Origin: Candidatus Udaeobacter sp.
GTDB taxonomy: Bacteria > Patescibacteriota > Patescibacteriia > Magasanikbacterales > GWA2-37-8
DNA length: 64,000 nt
Direction of reading: 5' to 3'
Assembly: GCA_035473115.1 (NCBI GenBank)
Contig: DATION010000004.1
Location: 33,126 to 97,125, forward strand
Part shown: piece by piece, positions 33,125 through 55,045 of the stretch
Layout of the letters: every line of letters starts with the position of its first letter
How positions within the stretch are numbered: position 1 is the stretch's first letter
Program-made: the position numbers and the translations under genes
The notes under the pieces: generated by a model
The model's input: only the letters and a program-made list of their open reading frames with translations
What the model was told of the DNA's origin: nothing
The model's database searches: none

Positions 33125-33126
33125 AT

Positions 33127-44399: not shown

Positions 44400-46454
44400 T
44401 TATTTTTTCTTAGTCTTAACCGGAGTAGTTGTAGGCACAGGAGCTAAAATTTGAGCTACCGTTGATGCTTCTGTCGGATTAAATGTAACTCCGTTTTTGG
44501 CTGCTAAATCAATAACTTCTTTTGCCTTATCCATCTGGCCTACCAATCTGTATACATAAGCCAAACGCCAATAGCTTTCACTGACATTAGGATCATCTTC
44601 AATTGTCTGCTTAAGGTATTTTACCGAATCATCAGTTCTGCCAATCTGCAAATAAAAATTTGCCAGATTATAAATAACCTGCTGACGCTTTGGTGAATAT
44701 TTTAAGGCGATTTCTAAATTATCACCATATTGAGCGACATACTTTAGATCATTTGTTAGAGAATAACCAACCTGACTCAATTGGCTTAAAGTCAGATAAT
44801 TTCTGATATCATAGGGATGCAAAACAATATTGGCTTGTAAAGCTTCTTGGGCTATGTTAAACATTTCCAAATTTTTATCTTTGCCAAGCTTGTTATCACT
44901 GCTGCTCAATACCTGAGCAACTGTGCGTGCCAGATCGCTGCGAATATCATCTATATGAGGCGAGTTAAAGGCCAAGGCTGTTTTCATTAAATCTATTCCT
45001 GTTAAAGGCTGGTAGCTTAGGTACTTGAGAGCATCCAAGGTTTTCATATTGGCTCTGGCAGGCTGGATATCAAAAATAAATACCAAAAATAAAATTACTA
45101 TTCCGGTGCTGACCATAGAGCCGGTGCCAATAGTTTTATTTGGATAAATAACCGGATTTTTAGCTGGCTCTGCCGGCAGCATTGATAAACTTATTATCAT
45201 TGCCAACCAAAACATAAAATATAAATATGAAGTTGGATTCTCAAAAACTGTCACGCTCTGTACAAGATGAGCCGCCAAGAAAGAAACTCCAATTACCACA
45301 ATATGCAAATCTAAAGATCTCTTTTTTCTGGCAACTACTAAAACAGCTACAGCCGCTCCGAAAATAGAAAGATAACTGATCAAACCAACCGCACCCTGTA
45401 CGGCCAAAGTGTTTACAATAATATTGTGAGCATTATCAAACCAAGTTTCTCCATAACCAAACTCCAAAGACTTTGGTTGATAATATTTATTAAAGGCATA
45501 AAAGAAGTTATTTGGACCCCAGCCAAATAACGGCTTCTCTTTCCAACTCTCTACAGCCGCTTTCCAAGCCAGCCAACGAGCACTGTTTTGGATACTGGCA
45601 AAAGAAGTATTTATTGTACGATTAACAGCCGGGATTTTTTGCACAAAACTTGTTTGTCTAAAAGCATAAAGCAAAGCAATGACTGCCACGCCAAATATTG
45701 CTAGACCCAAAAGAACTTTTCTGGTCTTAGGGAAGTCGCGCAAAACAAATATATATCCAACTACCGCTACAGCCATACCCACGATCAAACCGAGCATGGA
45801 TCCGCGCGTACCACTGAAAAACATGCCTAATATCGCCAGCGCTCCCGCAGCCGCTTCTATATATTTCCAATTTTTATTTTTCTCTTTAATAAAAAGCAGG
45901 AAGGAAACAAAAGTCAAAAATAAACCATAACCACCGACATAGATGGAATTTCCTAAAGTGCTGGCAACACGGTCACTGCCGCCGTTTAATAACATATCCG
46001 GTTTAAAAATCTGTAAAACACCGACAATCATAACGAGCGAGCCGGCAGATAAAAATATTTTTAAAGCTTTATTCCAATCTGTCCAATCTTTAAGAACAGC
46101 ACTGCAGATAAAATAATAGGCAATATAATGAAAAATTGTAAAAAGACCCAACATTCTTTCGTGGTTATCCCAAAAACTGTGGTAAGGATCAACGCCGACA
46201 AAAGTAGAAATGGCAAAGCTAATTAAAAAAACAAATAAAGCGATATTTAGGGCTGAAAACTTTGGTTTGAACTCCTGCCAATTGATGCACAATAATAAAA
46301 TATAACAACCGATCATTAAAGTGACTAGCGATCGGAAAAGCAATATTTTAGGGACGATAAAAGGAAAAATAAAAGAAGCTGGCAGTACTACCAAAGGAAC
46401 AAAAAAAGTGGCATAAATCAAAAACTTGGTTGCTTTCAAAATAGTCTGTTTCAT
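44400..46454 (-). CDS. O-antigen ligase/PglL-like (Wzy_C) polytopic membrane protein with C-terminal TPR repeats
   Basis: 684 aa with about 12 TM helices, including an FFSGTRGSMLGLIVG segment. The C-terminal ~200 aa has TPR-like repeats (YYLQIGRTDDSVKYLKQTIEDDP...YWRLAYVYRLVGQMDKA). Confidence 0.6.
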   Translation of the reverse strand: MKQTILKATKFLIYATFFVPLVVLPASFIFPFIVPKILLFRSLVTLMIGCYILLLCINWQEFKPKFSALNIALFVFLISFAISTFVGVDPYHSFWDNHERMLGLFTIFHYIAYYFICSAVLKDWTDWNKALKIFLSAGSLVMIVGVLQIFKPDMLLNGGSDRVASTLGNSIYVGGYGLFLTFVSFLLFIKEKNKNWKYIEAAAGALAILGMFFSGTRGSMLGLIVGMAVAVVGYIFVLRDFPKTRKVLLGLAIFGVAVIALLYAFRQTSFVQKIPAVNRTINTSFASIQNSARWLAWKAAVESWKEKPLFGWGPNNFFYAFNKYYQPKSLEFGYGETWFDNAHNIIVNTLAVQGAVGLISYLSIFGAAVAVLVVARKKRSLDLHIVVIGVSFLAAHLVQSVTVFENPTSYLYFMFWLAMIISLSMLPAEPAKNPVIYPNKTIGTGSMVSTGIVILFLVFIFDIQPARANMKTLDALKYLSYQPLTGIDLMKTALAFNSPHIDDIRSDLARTVAQVLSSSDNKLGKDKNLEMFNIAQEALQANIVLHPYDIRNYLTLSQLSQVGYSLTNDLKYVAQYGDNLEIALKYSPKRQQVIYNLANFYLQIGRTDDSVKYLKQTIEDDPNVSESYWRLAYVYRLVGQMDKAKEVIDLAAKNGVTFNPTEASTVAQILAPVPTTTPVKTKKK

Positions 46455-47972: not shown

Positions 47973-48064
47973 AAAATTCCCCCTGTTGTTATTAGCCAAC
48001 ATTATACGCTAATTTTAGTAAAAAGTCAAGCATAAATAAGTCATAAAAAATCAATTAAAAAAAC

Positions 48065-48093
48065 AAAAAAGACCGTAAATTACGATCTTTTTT
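48065..48093 (-). terminator. hairpin terminator downstream of tRNA-Val
   Basis: AAAAAAGACCGTAAATTACGATCTTTTTT. A stem flanked by an A-run and a T-run. Confidence 0.5.
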
Positions 48094-48114
48094 GGAATAG
48101 GAATGGTCGAATTG

Positions 48115-48188
48115 TAGGCGCTTAGGGATTCGAACCCTAGACCTCCTCGGTGTAAACGAGGCGCTCTAACCAACTGAGCTAAACGCCC
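48115..48188 (-). tRNA. tRNA-Val (anticodon UAC), CCA not encoded
   Basis: Reverse-complement GGGCGTTTAGCTCAGTTGGTTAGAGCGCCTCGTTTACACCGAGGAGGTCTAGGGTTCGAATCCCTAAGCGCCTA folds as a canonical cloverleaf with anticodon loop TTTACAC. Confidence 0.85.
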
Positions 48189-48270
48189 ATTTTTTCGTAT
48201 TAATGGAAACTTCGCCAAGCTATTTAATGTGGGCCCCGCTAAGCGGGGCTAACCACAACGCTTAGCGTTG

Positions 48271-48343
48271 TGGGTCGGCTGGGGATCGAACCCAGGACCA
48301 CTGCCTTAAAAGGGCATTGCTCTACCAGCTGAGCTACCGACCC
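48271..48343 (-). tRNA. tRNA-Lys (anticodon UUU), CCA not encoded
   Basis: Reverse-complement GGGTCGGTAGCTCAGCTGGTAGAGCAATGCCCTTTTAAGGCAGTGGTCCTGGGTTCGATCCCCAGCCGACCCA with anticodon loop CTTTTAA. Confidence 0.85.
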
Positions 48344-48411: not shown

Positions 48412-49491
48412 CTATCTCTGCATAACTATCTCTTCTATAATTTCTATCACTTTTTGCGCGCTAGCAGCCGGCAAAACTGTATGCAATTTTTCTTCTAAGT
48501 GTTTCTTTTTTTCTACAGAATTGATAATGCCAACAACTGTTTCAGCCAGATCTAAATCATTTATTTTTCTCTCATCCAAAACTATGGCTGCTTGCCTATC
48601 TGACAAAAATTTAGCATTAACTTCTTGATGCGTATCAGCAATCGGAATCAAAATCGCTGCTTTGCTCAAAGCCGCTAATTCGGTAATCGTAGAAAAACCG
48701 GCTCTGGCAATAACTACATCAGCCGAGGCATAAGCATCTTTAATGTCTTCTTTTAAAAACTGAAAAGCATGATAGTTTGGAAAATCATTGGTCGCAGCTT
48801 CAGACAACTCAACTGAACGCTCTTTACCAGTCAGATGAATTATATGAAAATTTTTAGGCCAGATAGATAAAGTCTCAACAATTAATTTATTGATTTTAAT
48901 CGAACCGGTGCCTCCGCCCATTGCCAAAATAACTGGTGATCCTTCGGGAATATTAAATTTTTTTCGGGAATTATTTTTATCAGTTACTGTTAAATTGCGA
49001 GCCGGATTGCCAATCCATTCTATTTGCTTACTTAAAAAATATTGTTTATTTTCTGCCAGGGCCGTAGTAATTTTTGTGGCTGTGCAAGACATTAATTTAT
49101 TGGCTAATCCAACTGCCAGATCTTGTTGATGCACCCAAGTTGGAATCTTGAGAACAAAAGCGGCAAAATGCAGTGGCACACTGACAAATCCTCCGGCTGT
49201 AATCAGCATATCCGGTTTCTCTCGCTTCAGTAAAAATAAGGACTGCCAAAAACCAAATGATATTTTAAAAATATCCAAAAAATTATCCCAAGAAAAATAT
49301 TGGCGCAGTTTGCCGGAAGTTATAGCAAAAAAAGGAATTTTATAACTTTCTACCAAACCTTTCTCCGGACCATTTTTTGTGCCGACCCAAATAAACTCCG
49401 CTTGAGGATTATGTTTTTTATAAATTTCGTAAATTGCCAGCAGCGGAGCGACCGGCCCCAAGGTTCCACCACCAGAGAGGAGTATTTTCAT
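48412..49491 (-). CDS. murG: UDP-GlcNAc:lipid I N-acetylglucosaminyltransferase MurG (GT28)
   Basis: MKILLSGGGTLGPVAPLLAI...ITAGGFVSVP and a C-terminal GT-B domain. Length is 359 aa. Confidence 0.85.
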   Translation of the reverse strand: MKILLSGGGTLGPVAPLLAIYEIYKKHNPQAEFIWVGTKNGPEKGLVESYKIPFFAITSGKLRQYFSWDNFLDIFKISFGFWQSLFLLKREKPDMLITAGGFVSVPLHFAAFVLKIPTWVHQQDLAVGLANKLMSCTATKITTALAENKQYFLSKQIEWIGNPARNLTVTDKNNSRKKFNIPEGSPVILAMGGGTGSIKINKLIVETLSIWPKNFHIIHLTGKERSVELSEAATNDFPNYHAFQFLKEDIKDAYASADVVIARAGFSTITELAALSKAAILIPIADTHQEVNAKFLSDRQAAIVLDERKINDLDLAETVVGIINSVEKKKHLEEKLHTVLPAASAQKVIEIIEEIVMQR

Positions 49492-49501
49492 ATAAAACCA
49501 T

Positions 49502-50569
49502 TTAACTCAAGTTGGCCAAAATTTCTTCTAGCTCACCTTTTGCTTCTGTTAAACTTATTCTGTCTTTTGGTTCACGCACAATCATTTTTTTAGCCAACTC
49601 ATCTAATTTTTCCAATACACTCTTATACATTATTCTAAAAATATCTTCTCTTTCATACAGATCTAACATCTTGGATAAACAGATGCCAAATTGGTAAGTC
49701 ATTTCACTTGGCTGGATTCCTTCTCCCTTAAAGAATTCTGGCGGCAAATAATCATCTACTCGTAATCTGTTATCTAGCACCCTGCCATTTTTAACCAGAC
49801 CTTCCAAGTCAAACAGGACACCCTTTTGAACATTTTCATCCGAAACTACACCTAAATTACTTAACTTTATATCCTGCAAAACCAAACCATTATCTGCTAA
49901 ATATTCTGCTCCATTTAAACAGTCTTTAACAACTTTTAAACCAGTTATAAAATTACTTTTGCTTTTAACAACATTTAAATATTCGTTTAATGGTCGTAAG
50001 TCTAATTTTTCGTAAATAGTCCGCTTAGATTCCGGGTCATACTGTTCTATATTAACGATATTGGCATGTGAACCATCTCGTTTGATTATTTCCATAAAAT
50101 AATCAATGGCTTCGGCAATGTGCTCTTCTTGGTCTGGTATTGGGTGCTGTTCTTTATGCATACTTCTTTGGCCACTCAACACACCGACCACCTCCTGAAT
50201 GACATTATGTTCATTCCTTTTTTTTGTTTCTAAAGTTTGAAGAACCAGGTAAGTCTCTTTATCAAGTCTATCTTTTAATTTTTCAATCAAAAGTCTGCGA
50301 ATCAAACTTATACAATCTTTTGCTTCTTTTGAACTTAGCTCTCCAGCCCATTGTTCTTTGCTCAGCATTCCCAAAATTTTACTATCGCTCAAAGCGTCAA
50401 CAACAAAAGAAGCTTCATCATCCTCAGTTTCTTCTGTCTTACTAACTATATAATCTGCATACTCTTCAATGTCCTTACGAGAAATTGCATGCTGCTCTAG
50501 CATTTTTATTTCTAAATTATCTTTCCGTGCAATTCTTTCTTCTTCGGGCGAAAAGTATTCTATTCCCAT
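49502..50569 (-). CDS. divergent eukaryotic-like protein-kinase-fold protein (paralogue 1; possible pseudokinase) with acidic helical N-region
   Basis: The C-terminal ~170 aa reads as an ePK C-lobe: HANIVNI (HPNIV-like), LVLQDIKLSNLGVV (HRDLKPxNI-like), LFDLEG (DFG-like), LPPEF (APE-like) and PKDRISLTEA. No obvious beta3 Lys. Confidence 0.45.
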   Translation of the reverse strand: MGIEYFSPEEERIARKDNLEIKMLEQHAISRKDIEEYADYIVSKTEETEDDEASFVVDALSDSKILGMLSKEQWAGELSSKEAKDCISLIRRLLIEKLKDRLDKETYLVLQTLETKKRNEHNVIQEVVGVLSGQRSMHKEQHPIPDQEEHIAEAIDYFMEIIKRDGSHANIVNIEQYDPESKRTIYEKLDLRPLNEYLNVVKSKSNFITGLKVVKDCLNGAEYLADNGLVLQDIKLSNLGVVSDENVQKGVLFDLEGLVKNGRVLDNRLRVDDYLPPEFFKGEGIQPSEMTYQFGICLSKMLDLYEREDIFRIMYKSVLEKLDELAKKMIVREPKDRISLTEAKGELEEILANLS

Positions 50570-50574
50570 AAAAT

Positions 50575-51699
50575 TTAATTTTCTAAAATTACACGGCTTA
50601 TAATCAACTCGAGTCTGTCTCTGGCTTCAGCTAAACTAATTCTATTTTTTGGATTTTCTTCTTTCATTTCATATATCAAATTACCAAGTTCAAATTTAAT
50701 GCCGTAGTCTAATTTTTTAAAGTACGATTCATGCTGATGAGCAAATGATACTTTGCCTAAGCATACGCCAAATTGGAAAGTCATTTCCGCTTCTTCAGTT
50801 ACCATAGAACCATCACTTTTCCATTCCGGCGGGATATAACTGTCGTCATTTATAGGAGCAAGTCTAACGGGAAGAAAATCATCTTTCATTACCACACCTT
50901 CAATATCAAAAAGTATGCCTTTTTCTTTACCATCCTCTATCACCAAACCTAGGTTATCTAATTTTATATCTTGTAAAACCAAATCTTTTTCCGATAAATA
51001 AGCTGCTCCAGCTAAACAATCTTTAATGACTTTTAGGGTTGTTAAAAACACTTCTTTGGTTTTTTCTGATCCTTCTAAGTACTTATCTAGAGTCTGAAGA
51101 TTTAATTTTTCGTAAATAGCCTGTCCAGTCTCAAAATTATAATTTAAAACCTTGACTAAATTAGGATGATAGCCTTTGGTTTGAAAATCTTCCAATAAAA
51201 TTTTCATAGCCGCTGCCTTACTATCTTTTTGTCCTTCTAAAACTTCTTGATCTTTATACACAGCTTCACGCCCTCTAGAACCATCAACTATTTTTTGGAC
51301 AATATTTTTACGATTGCCTGGTATCTTTTTTATCAAATCTTTAACTACTAAAAAAATATTTTTATCAACTCTGCCTTTTATAGCTTCTAGTAAAGCCTGC
51401 CGCACTCTATTTATAACAGCCTCAGCTTCATCTTCGTCTAACTGGACGGCAGCCATTTCCTGTCTTATTTTAGCCAACAAACGACTATTGTTAAGATCGT
51501 CAATTATAAAAACACGCTGCTCTTGGGTATCTTTTATATTTTCTAAGCTACTAACCAAATGATCCGCGTAAGTTTTAATATCGTCAGGAAAAATTACATC
51601 CTGTTCGGTCATCTTTCTTTCTAAATTTTTCCTCGGATCTATTTCGTGTCTAGGAGAAATATTTTTAATATCAGCAGACAAGCCTTCTTTTGAACTCAT
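50575..51699 (-). CDS. divergent eukaryotic-like protein-kinase-fold protein (paralogue 2) with acidic helical N-region
   Basis: Start trimmed to the ATG at 51699, 4 nt after the rpoD stop. AAMKIL (VAIK-like Lys), GYHPNLVKVL, LVLQDIKLDNLGLV, ILFDIEG, YIPPEW and NPKNRISLAEA. Paralogous to 49502-50569. Confidence 0.45.
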   Translation of the reverse strand: MSSKEGLSADIKNISPRHEIDPRKNLERKMTEQDVIFPDDIKTYADHLVSSLENIKDTQEQRVFIIDDLNNSRLLAKIRQEMAAVQLDEDEAEAVINRVRQALLEAIKGRVDKNIFLVVKDLIKKIPGNRKNIVQKIVDGSRGREAVYKDQEVLEGQKDSKAAAMKILLEDFQTKGYHPNLVKVLNYNFETGQAIYEKLNLQTLDKYLEGSEKTKEVFLTTLKVIKDCLAGAAYLSEKDLVLQDIKLDNLGLVIEDGKEKGILFDIEGVVMKDDFLPVRLAPINDDSYIPPEWKSDGSMVTEEAEMTFQFGVCLGKVSFAHQHESYFKKLDYGIKFELGNLIYEMKEENPKNRISLAEARDRLELIISRVILEN

Positions 51700-51703
51700 A
51701 TAT

Positions 51704-53002
51704 TTAATAATCCTTGAGTTTGCCAATAATTCCCATACGCTGAATTTTTTCCAGAGCTTTGGCTTCGATTTGGCGGATACGTTCGCGGGTAACATCAAAT
51801 TCCTGGCCAACTTCTTCCAAAGTGTGAGTCACGCCATCGGCCAAACCAAATCTCATTTCCAAAATTTTCTGTTCGCGCGGTGACAAATCTTTAATTGCTT
51901 CTTTGACGTAATCACGCAAAATCTGCAAACCAGCCACGCGGTCGGGCGGCATATTTTTGACATCTTCCACAAAATCTTGCAAAGAAGAATCATCGTCATC
52001 ATCGCCAACCGACATTTCCAAAGACACGGTATCCTGAGATATTTTTATAATATGATTTACTTTGGATACTTCTTCGCCCATTTCGGCAGCTAATTCTTCC
52101 GGAGTCGGATCACGGCCTAAGTCTTGCAATAATCGGCGCTGCACCTGCTGGAAACGATTAATTGTTTCCACCATATGCACGGGAATACGAATGGTGCGCG
52201 ACTGGTCGGCCAAAGCACGAGTAATCGCTTGGCGAATCCACCAAGTGGCGTAAGTGGAAAATTTATAACCGCGGCGGTAATCAAATTTTTTCACAGCTCT
52301 AAACAAACCGATGTTGCCTTCTTGGATTAAATCCAACAAAGAAAGGGATTTGCCCACGAATTTTTTGGCAATAGAAACTACCAACCGCAAGTTGGCTTCA
52401 ATCAATTTTCTGTCTGCTTCTTTGTCGCCGCGCTCTTTGCGTTTAGCTAGCGCCACTTCTTCATCGGCTTTGAGTAGCGGAATTCGGCCGATTTCTCGCA
52501 GATACATCTGAATTGGATCCGAAGAAATTTGCCCTAAATCAAAAGGAATATCCATATCCGGCTGCTTGCCCTGAAAACTTTTTAAAGTTTGTGAATGTTC
52601 TTCTTTACGGCCAAGCAAATTGCCGGTTGTCTCAACAATAGAGACACCGTTTTTATCAAGCAGATCTATAAAACCTTCGTATAGATCTAAATAACGCTCT
52701 GGTCGAGGAAAAACACCTTCAACTTCAATTTGAGTAATAAATCCGCGATTGCGGCCTTTGGCGATTATGGCCCAGATATCTTTAAGAGTTGGTTCAACAA
52801 CCACTTCTTCGGCTGCCATTAATTTTTTGGATTGCTTACTTTTTTTATTTACAAATATTTTATTTTTTCGAGACGGCTGGATGCGTTTAACTTTTTTTGG
52901 CTGAGATGATTTTTTTACCGCTTTACCCTTTTTTTGCTTACGCGTATGTTTAACGCGCAATGGCTTAGGGCGCTTCTTAATTGTCCCTTTCTTGGTCGGC
53001 AT
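51704..53002 (-). CDS. rpoD: RNA polymerase primary sigma factor (sigma-70 family) with lysine-rich basic N-terminal tail
   Basis: Regions 2-4 are conserved ([40 protein letters not shown]; C-terminal [21 protein letters not shown]). The N-terminal ~65 aa is K/R-rich. Confidence 0.85.
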
Positions 53003-53131: not shown

Positions 53132-54901
53132 TTATTCTAGCGCCACTATCTGTTTTAAAATTTGCTGCAACAATTCTGTGTTTTTATTTTTTTCTGCTTC
53201 TTTTAAAGCGCTGGTTAATTCGGCGCGCTTATCGCTCAACCATTCTGATTTTATCCGCGCCAACAAAACTTCTATCTCTTTTTTTGCTTCTTCCACAGTA
53301 AAGCTGCTGTAATCTTTATCCGCTTTTAATACTAAAACATCAATGGAATTTTGATCTTCCTTTTCTAAAATGTCTTCCTTATCTGTATAACCATTGTACT
53401 GCTTTTTTAATGATTCGTAAAGACTAGCTAGCGGAGTGGGAGGAAAAAAACTCTGGCTTGAACCAAAAACTGGCTCGGCAAACAATTTAGGAAATTTTAT
53501 CAGCAAAGCAAAAATATTTTCGGTCAATGAAATTATTCGGCTTTTTTCTAGCTGTTTCTCTTTTTCAACTGGTTTTTGCCCAGAATTTTCCTGCCTATTC
53601 TCGTTAAATTTAGGTTTAACCGCAGCCAAACGGCGCATTTCGGTAGTTAAGGTGGTATGGTCAACGCCCAGTTCATCAGCCAATTTTTTCAACCAATGAT
53701 CCCTCTCTACGGCATAAGGCAAACGAATTATTTCAGCCAGCAAAGTATCAGCAATTTTTTGTTTCTGTTTCGGATCGTGCTTATCAGCCCCAATTAAAGT
53801 GCTAGAAAAATACCATTCCATAACTTCTTTGGCATTTTCTATTGCCTTAAACCAGACATCCGGATTTTTTTTCAAACATTCGTCGGCATCCTTGCCGCAG
53901 CCAGCTGGAATTTGAATAATTTTTATATTCATCCCCTGCTCCAAAGCCAAATCTATACCACGCTTGGCTGCATTTTGCCCAGCCGCGTCAGCATCAAAAG
54001 CAATCGCAATATTATTAGAATATCTCTTTAATAATTTTATCTGTTCAAAGGTCAAAGCCGTACCTGAAGAAGCAACCACGTTTTTCATTCCTGCCTGATG
54101 ACAAGCCACCACATCCATCTGCCCTTCTACCAACACCGTAAAATCTTTATTTTTTATTTCCGTTTTAGCTTTATTTAATCCGTATAAAACTCGAGATTTA
54201 TCATACACCAAAGTCTGCGGCGTATTTACATATTTGCCGCCGGATTTTTCTGTTTCCACCAAAACTCGACCAGTAAAACCAACCGTATTGCCATGCGCGT
54301 CCCAAATCGGAAACATTATGCGGCCGCGAAAACGGTCATAAACTCCCCCGCCATCTTTTTTTATACTCAACCCTGAAGCCAATAAATCATCTATGCTATT
54401 TCCTTTTTTTAATAAATATTGCGTAAGTAAATCCCACTGTTCGGGAATAAAACCAACTTTCCAATCAATAATTGTTTCTGATTTTAATTCTCGCTTTTTT
54501 AAATAATCTCTGGCGCCATGGCTAGCCGGCATTTCCAACAAAAACTGATGAAAAAAATAGGCAGCTTTACTATTTATTTCCAAAATTCTGTTTTTTTGAC
54601 TCTTGTTTACTTCACTGGCAAAAGTATCCAATTTTACGCCGGCTCGCTCGGCCAAAATTTTTAAAGCTTCCGGAAATTCCAATCCTTCCATTTCCTGCAA
54701 AAAAGAAAAAACATCACCGCTTTTACTGCAACCAAAACAGTGCCAGAATTGCTTTTCTGAATTGACCATAAACGAAGGTGATTTTTCGTTATGGAATGGA
54801 CAATTGGCTTTCCAATTGGCGCCGGCTTTTTTGAGCGGAATATATTCGCCAATTATTTGCGCAATGTCTAATCTATCTTTGATGGCTTGGGTATCAGTCA
54901 T
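53132..54901 (-). CDS. dnaG: DNA primase
   Basis: N-terminal zinc ribbon CPFHNEKSPSFMV...HCFGC, a TOPRIM domain (VLVEGQMDVV; DADAAG). Length is 589 aa. Confidence 0.9.
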   Translation of the reverse strand: MTDTQAIKDRLDIAQIIGEYIPLKKAGANWKANCPFHNEKSPSFMVNSEKQFWHCFGCSKSGDVFSFLQEMEGLEFPEALKILAERAGVKLDTFASEVNKSQKNRILEINSKAAYFFHQFLLEMPASHGARDYLKKRELKSETIIDWKVGFIPEQWDLLTQYLLKKGNSIDDLLASGLSIKKDGGGVYDRFRGRIMFPIWDAHGNTVGFTGRVLVETEKSGGKYVNTPQTLVYDKSRVLYGLNKAKTEIKNKDFTVLVEGQMDVVACHQAGMKNVVASSGTALTFEQIKLLKRYSNNIAIAFDADAAGQNAAKRGIDLALEQGMNIKIIQIPAGCGKDADECLKKNPDVWFKAIENAKEVMEWYFSSTLIGADKHDPKQKQKIADTLLAEIIRLPYAVERDHWLKKLADELGVDHTTLTTEMRRLAAVKPKFNENRQENSGQKPVEKEKQLEKSRIISLTENIFALLIKFPKLFAEPVFGSSQSFFPPTPLASLYESLKKQYNGYTDKEDILEKEDQNSIDVLVLKADKDYSSFTVEEAKKEIEVLLARIKSEWLSDKRAELTSALKEAEKNKNTELLQQILKQIVALE

Positions 54902-55045
54902 TTAATATTTTTAGCATCGGGCTTCAACAAACTCTACCCGACATAATTGCTTTAAGTCAACTTTATCATAGTTAATACAAAAACAGCAAGGTAACTTACC
55001 TTGACAAATTTATACTAATATAATAAGTTAGCTTTAGAAGTTTGT

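Follow-up and report, generated by a model that had tools for sequence, protein, structure and literature searches.

A kinase-fold protein family with an unusual ATP site encoded beside murG in Patescibacteria

Two adjacent genes of no recognised family lie between rpoD and murG, the gene for the lipid II GlcNAc transferase, in a 64,000-nucleotide stretch of contig DATION010000004.1 (assembly GCA_035473115.1, forward-strand positions 33,126 to 97,125; hereafter, the window), and the question is what such proteins do there. Much of bacterial diversity is made up of Patescibacteria, and because their genomes are tiny, the genes that they keep beside essential cell-wall genes are likely to matter. 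Literature searches returned nothing on kinase-fold control of peptidoglycan synthesis in this group. The family gene is here called X, and its two copies in the window par1 and par2.

A first-pass annotation had described two paralogous open reading frames (ORFs), and this description holds: on the minus strand, par1 (355 amino acids, aa) and par2 (374 aa) are 39% identical across their full length (E = 1e-75). Our reading, to which we assign a probability of about 0.42, is that X is a soluble atypical kinase with a rebuilt ATP site that acts on the lipid II/divisome machinery, and that par1 and par2 are tandem duplicates of it. The two genes and their main features are the following.

49502..50569, minus strand: par1, 355 aa, an N-terminal α/β domain followed by an atypical protein-kinase domain
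50258..50569, minus strand: par1 N-terminal domain, residues 1–104, with two strands, four helices and the conserved residues Y37 and R91
49505..50257, minus strand: par1 kinase domain, residues 105–355, assigned from AlphaFold2, Foldseek and profile alignments
50153..50155, minus strand: par1 K139 (in SMHKEQ), basic residue of predicted strand β3, assigned from AlphaFold2 secondary structure; the par2 equivalent is K149 (in AVYKDQ)
49856..49879, minus strand: par1 catalytic loop LQDIKLSN, residues 231–238; par2 equivalent at 50953..50976
49799..49810, minus strand: par1 DLEG, residues 254–257, at the DFG position; par2 equivalent DIEG at 50896..50907
50575..51699, minus strand: par2, 374 aa from ATG, a diverged tandem paralogue with the same architecture and the main conserved family residues kept
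51193..51213, minus strand: par2 AAMKILL, residues 163–169, in predicted helix αC, with the family-conserved Ala A164 (par1 A154)

Fold and family of the X proteins

An AlphaFold2 model of par1, built with a 137-sequence family alignment, shows a complete two-lobed kinase fold (predicted local distance difference test, pLDDT, 93.9; predicted template-modelling score, pTM, 0.91), in which the N-lobe elements β1 (residues 106–115), β2 (123–129), β3 (135–140), αC (148–165), β4 (174–178) and β5 (183–187) are followed by the C-lobe. When the model was compared with the PDB using Foldseek, the top 50 matches were all protein kinases (E ~1e-11), the best being IRAK4, CASK, CaMKII, DAPK/DRAK and DCLK1 over 260–300 aligned columns, and the target-normalised template-modelling scores against PDB kinases were 0.54–0.68. 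Structure prediction thus gave a kinase fold and not a non-kinase one. At the sequence level, par1 matches Pfam Pkinase (PF00069) with E = 2.9e-8 and 33.9 bits against a gathering cut-off of 31.7, over profile positions 51–257 only, and par2 scores 20.0 bits, under that cut-off. A close-family profile matched PDB kinases at E = 4e-13, and the 137-sequence profile matched CDK2 in hhalign with 96.5% probability, both alignments running from αC to subdomain XI. These matches go far beyond chance, and the motifs resembling those of eukaryotic protein kinases (ePKs) that had been picked out at first pass fall in the right structural places: HANIV/HPNLV in β4, LQDIKLxN in the catalytic loop, DLEG/DIEG at DFG, PPE at APE and PK(D/N)RISL in subdomain XI. 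Neither hhalign nor hmmsearch aligned the N-lobe strands to canonical kinases, and the two differ by three residues in the register of αC; the assignment of β3 therefore rests on the AlphaFold2 secondary structure.

What had been called a long helical N-terminal region proved to be two things, a domain of ~100 aa with α/β structure and the N-lobe of the kinase itself (β1–β5 and αC, residues ~105–190). The N-terminal domain is predicted to comprise strands 3–6 and 54–57 and helices 19–25, 31–46, 62–71 and 80–99, and the same secondary structure was obtained when the first 104 residues were modelled alone (pLDDT 82.8, pTM 0.73). Foldseek found no match to this domain in the PDB with E <1, the Pfam matches of the N-terminal region to DUF1631 and Spiralin were insignificant, no Pfam domain except Pkinase was found in par1 or par2, and no NCBIfam model matched either protein. 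Transmembrane segments were absent from 136 of the 137 family members, and the isoelectric point of X is ~5, as for an acidic, soluble protein. As modelled, then, X is a kinase-fold protein behind an N-terminal α/β domain of ~100 aa without known structural relative, which would serve targeting or regulation. Membership in the aminoglycoside phosphotransferase (APH)/choline-kinase type was ruled out by the conserved APE Glu, αF E-x-x-x-Q-x-G motif and subdomain XI Arg, together with the best fold matches, which are protein kinases.

Word-indexed searches recovered only 11–14 relatives of X, and one alignment-based search for related loci yielded 6 genome and 5 metagenome loci; an exhaustive search with a profile raised the number to 212 cluster representatives at E ≤ 1e-10, with 79 of them at E ≤ 1e-30. 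The majority are full length (350–430 aa) and include the N-terminal domain. Those with an organism name all come from Candidatus Magasanikbacteria (within the Patescibacteria group), Candidatus Uhrbacteria or Parcubacteria group bacterium Gr01-1014_13, and in databases they are named “hypothetical protein,” “protein kinase domain-containing protein” or “serine/threonine protein kinase.” This family was not found in Patescibacteria in literature searches, and neither the 2025 review of bacterial pseudokinases (PMC12599244) nor the kinase-atlas preprint (10.1101/2025.01.12.632604) describes one in Patescibacteria or beside murG. The first-pass remark that the family was unfamiliar is borne out: it is uncharacterised, within the known Hanks-type kinase superfamily. 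One member, P0029 (L024:5001-8288), is a 1095-aa fusion in which a whole family unit follows a region of ~720 aa without Pfam match; this region contains a GGDELTL stretch that we take to be reminiscent of the nucleotidyl-cyclase palm motif, and ftsE/ftsX-like genes lie upstream of the fusion gene.

X evolves quickly. Between genomes in which DnaG and RpoD are 84–95% identical, X is only 40–63% identical, and in the extreme pair (L011 and L021) identities are 92% for DnaG, 93% for RpoD, 82% for MurG and 43% for X. The nonsynonymous rate (dN, Nei-Gojobori) of X is 4–11 times that of dnaG and rpoD and ~1.5–4 times that of murG; its ratio to the synonymous rate (dN/dS) is ~0.1–0.26, a rough figure because dS is near saturation. 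X is under purifying selection, yet no other gene of the block evolves nearly as fast, and its rate may reflect relaxed constraint, diversifying selection or recombinational replacement.

The active site and its known counterparts

Residue conservation was counted over the 137 full-length family members, which share only ~20–30% identity, in par1 numbering. The catalytic Asp D233 is kept in 136, the Mg-binding Asn N238 in 133 and the DFG Asp D254 in all 137, and such near-invariance in a fast-evolving protein argues for chemistry at the site. The C-lobe core is the most conserved region of X: the αF Gly G295 is present in 134 members within a conserved E-x-x-x-Q-x-G motif, and the APE Glu E278 (111 members) and the subdomain XI Arg R337 (123 members) both align to CDPK and CDK2. 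The main conserved residues are kept by par1 and par2 alike.

Elsewhere the site is rebuilt. HRD has become LQD, with His and Arg replaced by Leu and Gln, and DFG has become D-[LI]-[DE]-G, so that position 256, where the DFG Gly would stand, is acidic in 127 of the 137 members. The basic residue of predicted β3, position 139, is Lys in 82 members (including all of the closest ~28) and Arg in 55. The first-pass annotation had read AAMKIL in par2 as the VAIK motif and had found no such Lys in par1. Both points fail, since AAMKIL lies in predicted αC and holds the conserved αC Ala, which is not the place of a β3 motif, and a predicted β3 Lys is present in both proteins (K139 and K149).

These residues suggest how ATP might be held. 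The β3 Lys/Arg would pair with the acid at the DFG Gly position (K139–E256 in par1), replacing the canonical bond between Lys and the αC Glu, and the pairing would leave X able to bind ATP and transfer phosphate. No covariation between Lys/Arg at 139 and Asp/Glu at 256 was found among the 137 members.

Similar solutions have been described in two other kinase families. In the DYD group of bacterial Ser/Thr kinases and pseudokinases (O'Boyle et al. 2025, PMC12599244; atlas preprint 10.1101/2025.01.12.632604), as in X, β3 carries Lys or Arg (Arg in 60% of DYD proteins and 40% of the X family), the αC Glu is absent, the catalytic Asp, Asn and DFG Asp are kept, and an extra acid stands two positions after the DFG Asp. 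In DYD models this second Asp bridges the β3 Arg by a salt bridge, and ATP is still predicted to bind (PMC12599244). DYD proteins differ from X in being membrane-associated and in belonging to Actinobacteria and Firmicutes, whereas X is soluble and found in Patescibacteria; the X motif lacks the Tyr of D-Y-D, and X adds an N-terminal domain that is unique to it and, at the site of the Gly loop, a variable insert, whereas the atlas gives no DYD-specific insertions. The eukaryotic protein O-mannose kinase POMK (SGK196), a glycan kinase of the secretory pathway, has a kinase fold that was once thought dead and yet is active with DLD in place of DFG (PMC12599244), where a bridge from an acid to Lys takes over from the Lys–αC Glu pair; that Lys belongs to the G-loop, whereas the basic residue of X is in β3, and the two share no sequence-level kinship beyond the superfamily. 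X thus resembles the ATP-binding solutions of DYD and POMK, likened to DYD by the family description and not by sequence. A basic β3 residue (Lys/Arg), a missing αC Glu and an acid at the DFG Gly position together match both, which favours an ATP-binding and probably catalytically competent kinase.

Two other systems connect kinase folds with the bacterial cell wall. The PASTA kinases PknB, PrkC and StkP also have Hanks-type kinase domains, which control cell-wall synthesis and division; theirs are canonical (GxGxxG, VAIK, αC Glu, HRD, DFG) and are joined to a transmembrane helix and extracellular PASTA repeats, whereas X has a non-canonical core and neither of these additions. The pseudokinase domain of mycobacterial MviN (MurJ), of the ActPs3 family, is likewise a kinase-fold module tied to the lipid II pathway and regulates peptidoglycan synthesis. 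Unlike X, a separate protein that keeps Asp, Asn and Asp and whose gene adjoins murG, the MviN domain is fused to a flippase, has lost its catalytic motifs and does not bind ATP.

Association with murG and competing readings

The two neighbours of the par2–par1 pair are these.

51704..53002, minus strand: rpoD, upstream neighbour of par2 and, in this clade, of X
48412..49491, minus strand: murG (lipid II GlcNAc transferase), conserved partner downstream of X

In 15 of the 21 distinct family loci, murG is the gene immediately downstream of X. The order is rpoD–X–murG in the window (with X duplicated), L001/L010, L003, L006, L007, L009, L011/L019, L012, L017, L020, L021 and L025; ftsW–X–murG in L013 and L027; and X–murG at a cut contig in L018. 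In L003, L007, L009, L021, L025 and L027, the stop and start of X and murG overlap by 4–11 nt. Loci with neither neighbour are L022 (gyrB–X–ndk), L015 (purH–X), L014, L023 (a tandem pair) and L024 (the fusion near ftsEX). One locus, L026 (P0136), does not enter the count: tblastn aligns it with par1/par2 over just a portion of the C-terminal region (E ~1e-7 to 1e-8), and it is flanked by genes for two dCache/HAMP sensor proteins, a periplasmic binding protein and an extracytoplasmic function (ECF) sigma factor, not by housekeeping genes.

In division and cell-wall clusters, ftsW–murG is the usual order, so X sits inside that pair in some lineages. Because X–murG is kept where ftsW replaces rpoD upstream, the conserved link is with murG, and the rpoD–X association is clade-specific (Magasanikbacteria-like). 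In the proposed mechanism, X would act on MurG or on a MurG-associated lipid II/divisome protein and tune the synthesis of cell-wall precursors. Such a protein, tied to murG and in some lineages placed between ftsW and murG, would be the first candidate regulator of lipid II synthesis in Patescibacteria; it would also be a further natural kinase with a rebuilt ATP site, informative as to which features of the fold are truly required.

Several observations weigh against this interpretation. At the ATP site, GxGxxG is absent between β1 and β2 throughout the 137 members, where the loop measures 0–66 aa (median 7) and 54 members have no Gly in it; no column from 153 to 157 holds a conserved Glu, the αC Glu aligning either with position 154, Ala in 115 members (profile against PDB), or with the variable position 157 (hhalign); Lys K235 of the catalytic loop is kept consistently only within the close clade (in 41 of the 137 members altogether); and 40% of members have Arg at β3. 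Lys-to-Arg substitution at this position inactivates canonical kinases. The K139–E256 bridge and the orientation of K139 towards the cleft are predicted features and may not be as drawn, and the N-terminal domain might occlude the cleft. As to the partner, the sole basis of the link between X and MurG is gene adjacency, and most of the sampled loci come from one clade, so that part of the synteny is simply inherited.

Much of this would suit the main rival, a true pseudokinase that has no catalytic role and serves as a scaffold or allosteric regulator by binding MurG or divisome proteins, perhaps as a nucleotide-binding switch, an explanation that we regard as somewhat unlikely. The missing Gly-rich loop and αC Glu, the interchange of Lys and Arg at β3, the loss of the HRD His and Arg and an evolutionary rate typical of binding proteins all agree with it, and MviN shows that a kinase-fold domain can be attached to the lipid II pathway (PMC12599244). 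The catalytic Asp, Asn and DFG Asp, however, are near-invariant in 137 diverged sequences, whereas the described families of bacterial scaffold pseudokinases have lost these residues (PMC12599244). A pseudokinase is defined in sequence terms by the loss of the VAIK Lys, HRD Asp or DFG Asp (PMC12599244; preprint 10.1101/2025.01.12.632604); par1 and par2 keep the full triad and so are not pseudokinases by the formal definition, by which the 55 members with Arg at β3 would count as such. Of the first-pass label “atypical kinase/pseudokinase,” therefore, the kinase fold and the atypical active site stand, and “pseudokinase” in the formal sense does not. Were X nonetheless a dead scaffold, it would still add a pseudokinase family, and with it an accessory domain, not known before.

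A bolder form of the catalytic interpretation is unlikely: that X founds a Patescibacteria-specific class of kinase-fold enzymes, with a Lys/Arg–acid ATP lock and a novel N-terminal domain, which directly modifies MurG, FtsW or a lipid-linked precursor. If true, it would mean a previously unknown control or chemical step in the lipid II synthesis of minimal, host-dependent bacteria, and the rapid evolution of X would reflect adaptation of envelope growth to different hosts. We consider it quite unlikely that X is, like POMK, a kinase for a non-protein substrate, here a sugar or a lipid-linked cell-wall precursor around the MurG step. The D-L-[DE] motif, the lack of an αC Glu and the non-canonical N-lobe recall POMK (PMC12599244), the adjoining gene encodes a glycosyltransferase that acts on lipid-linked sugars, and an envelope polysaccharide cluster lies nearby; but protein kinases give the best matches in both fold and sequence, the APE Glu, αF motif and subdomain XI Arg specific to ePKs are retained, and X is cytoplasmic and soluble, with no membrane anchor.

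The history of the two copies bears on the further suggestion that the pair links transcription to envelope synthesis through σ70 (RpoD), one paralogue regulating the other. X is single-copy in all 14 of the related rpoD/ftsW–X–murG loci. Of the two, par1 is nearer to the orthologues that occur as single copies (BLASTP identity up to 47%), and no relative of par2 above 40% identity was found; in a neighbour-joining tree, both emerge as long branches from the base of the close clade, with 30 of 100 bootstraps, too few to resolve whether they are sisters. An independent tandem pair (391 and 404 aa, overlapping by 4 nt) occurs at only one locus, the unrelated L023:3399-5785, downstream of a gene with a phosphoenolpyruvate (PEP)-utilising-enzyme domain and with no murG or rpoD nearby, so tandem duplication of X has occurred more than once. 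Because X is single-copy in all relatives with the same gene order, the pair is not a conserved two-gene module; on sequence comparison it is a lineage-specific duplication, or an old one retained only here, and in the preferred scenario X would have been duplicated in this lineage, after which par1 and par2 diverged fast. The first-pass idea of a regulator–partner pair accordingly falls away, and the tandem pair, whose conservation beside rpoD had been proposed as a check, is not conserved there in related genomes.

The σ70 connection itself is highly unlikely. rpoD does adjoin X both in the window and in 12 related lineages, at a distance of only 4–80 nt, but the upstream gene is ftsW in L013 and L027, with murG still downstream, and gyrB in L022, and X–murG may be no more than an addition to the housekeeping operon dnaG–rpoD; synteny tracks murG and not rpoD. 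We give next to no credence to a kinase that is mobile or serves in defence (as a toxin or anti-phage module), which would explain the rapid evolution (dN 4–11 times that of the neighbours) and the duplication and which has weak PADLOC matches (MkoA, 1.3e-9; PD-T4-6) in its favour, since these matches extend over nothing but the generic kinase domain, lineages differing by 45% in DnaG keep the gene at its place between housekeeping genes, the GC content is in line with the surroundings, and no partner defence genes are present.

Apparent transcription unit and surroundings

On the minus strand the gene order is dnaG, rpoD, par2, par1, murG, tRNA-Lys and tRNA-Val, followed by a hairpin, the remaining features of this block being the following.

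53132..54901, minus strand: dnaG, first gene of the apparent operon
54960..54931, minus strand: promoter-like site at dnaG, a consensus match only
48114..48343, minus strand: tRNA-Lys(UUU) and tRNA-Val(UAC), directly 3' of murG
48064..48094, minus strand: terminator-like hairpin, 14-bp stem and T-run

The short intergenic gaps noted at first pass (4–10 nt) were measured as 4 nt for rpoD–par2, 5 nt for par2–par1 and 10 nt for par1–murG; the longest par2 ORF starts with TTG at 51810 and would overlap rpoD. The hairpin at 48094..48064 is the first strong terminator-like site 3' of dnaG on this strand, and no other comparable site was found between dnaG and that hairpin. Given the tight gaps and the absence of a terminator between the genes, co-transcription of par2 and par1 with rpoD and murG, which had been asserted outright, is plausible. 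Promoter-like matches in the window were not enriched over shuffled sequence, and no internal promoter is claimed for this reason. The two tRNA genes apparently belong to the same transcription unit; in L001 and L003, the interval from murG to an amino-acid permease gene holds two small unannotated ORFs (~86–89 aa and 233–239 aa) and not tRNAs.

A large envelope polysaccharide cluster occupies 25686–46454 of the window, on the same strand as X, with genes for a UDP-glucose dehydrogenase, a GHMP kinase, an epimerase, GT1 and GT2 glycosyltransferases, a flippase-type Polysacc_synt protein, a DegT aminotransferase and a thiamine pyrophosphate (TPP) enzyme. A 684-aa membrane protein of this region (44400..46454) corresponds to orthologues in L001 and L003 that are annotated Wzy_C and TPR.

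The proteins of the source metagenome-assembled genome (MAG) carry the NCBI label “Candidatus Udaeobacter sp.” (Verrucomicrobiota). For cca, dnaG and rpoD of the window, identity with the genes of Parcubacteria group bacterium Gr01-1014_13 is 84–90%, and for dnaG and rpoD, identity with those of a Magasanikbacteria MAG is 74–85%; judged by these identities, the contig almost certainly comes from Patescibacteria and is mis-binned or mislabelled. Loci L012–L014, labelled “uncultured Gammaproteobacteria,” look mislabelled likewise. Across the whole window (1–64000), nearly all ORFs of at least 150 aa lie on the minus strand, and the GC skew is negative in every 2-kb window (cumulative -5.1), a strong strand bias over 64 kb.

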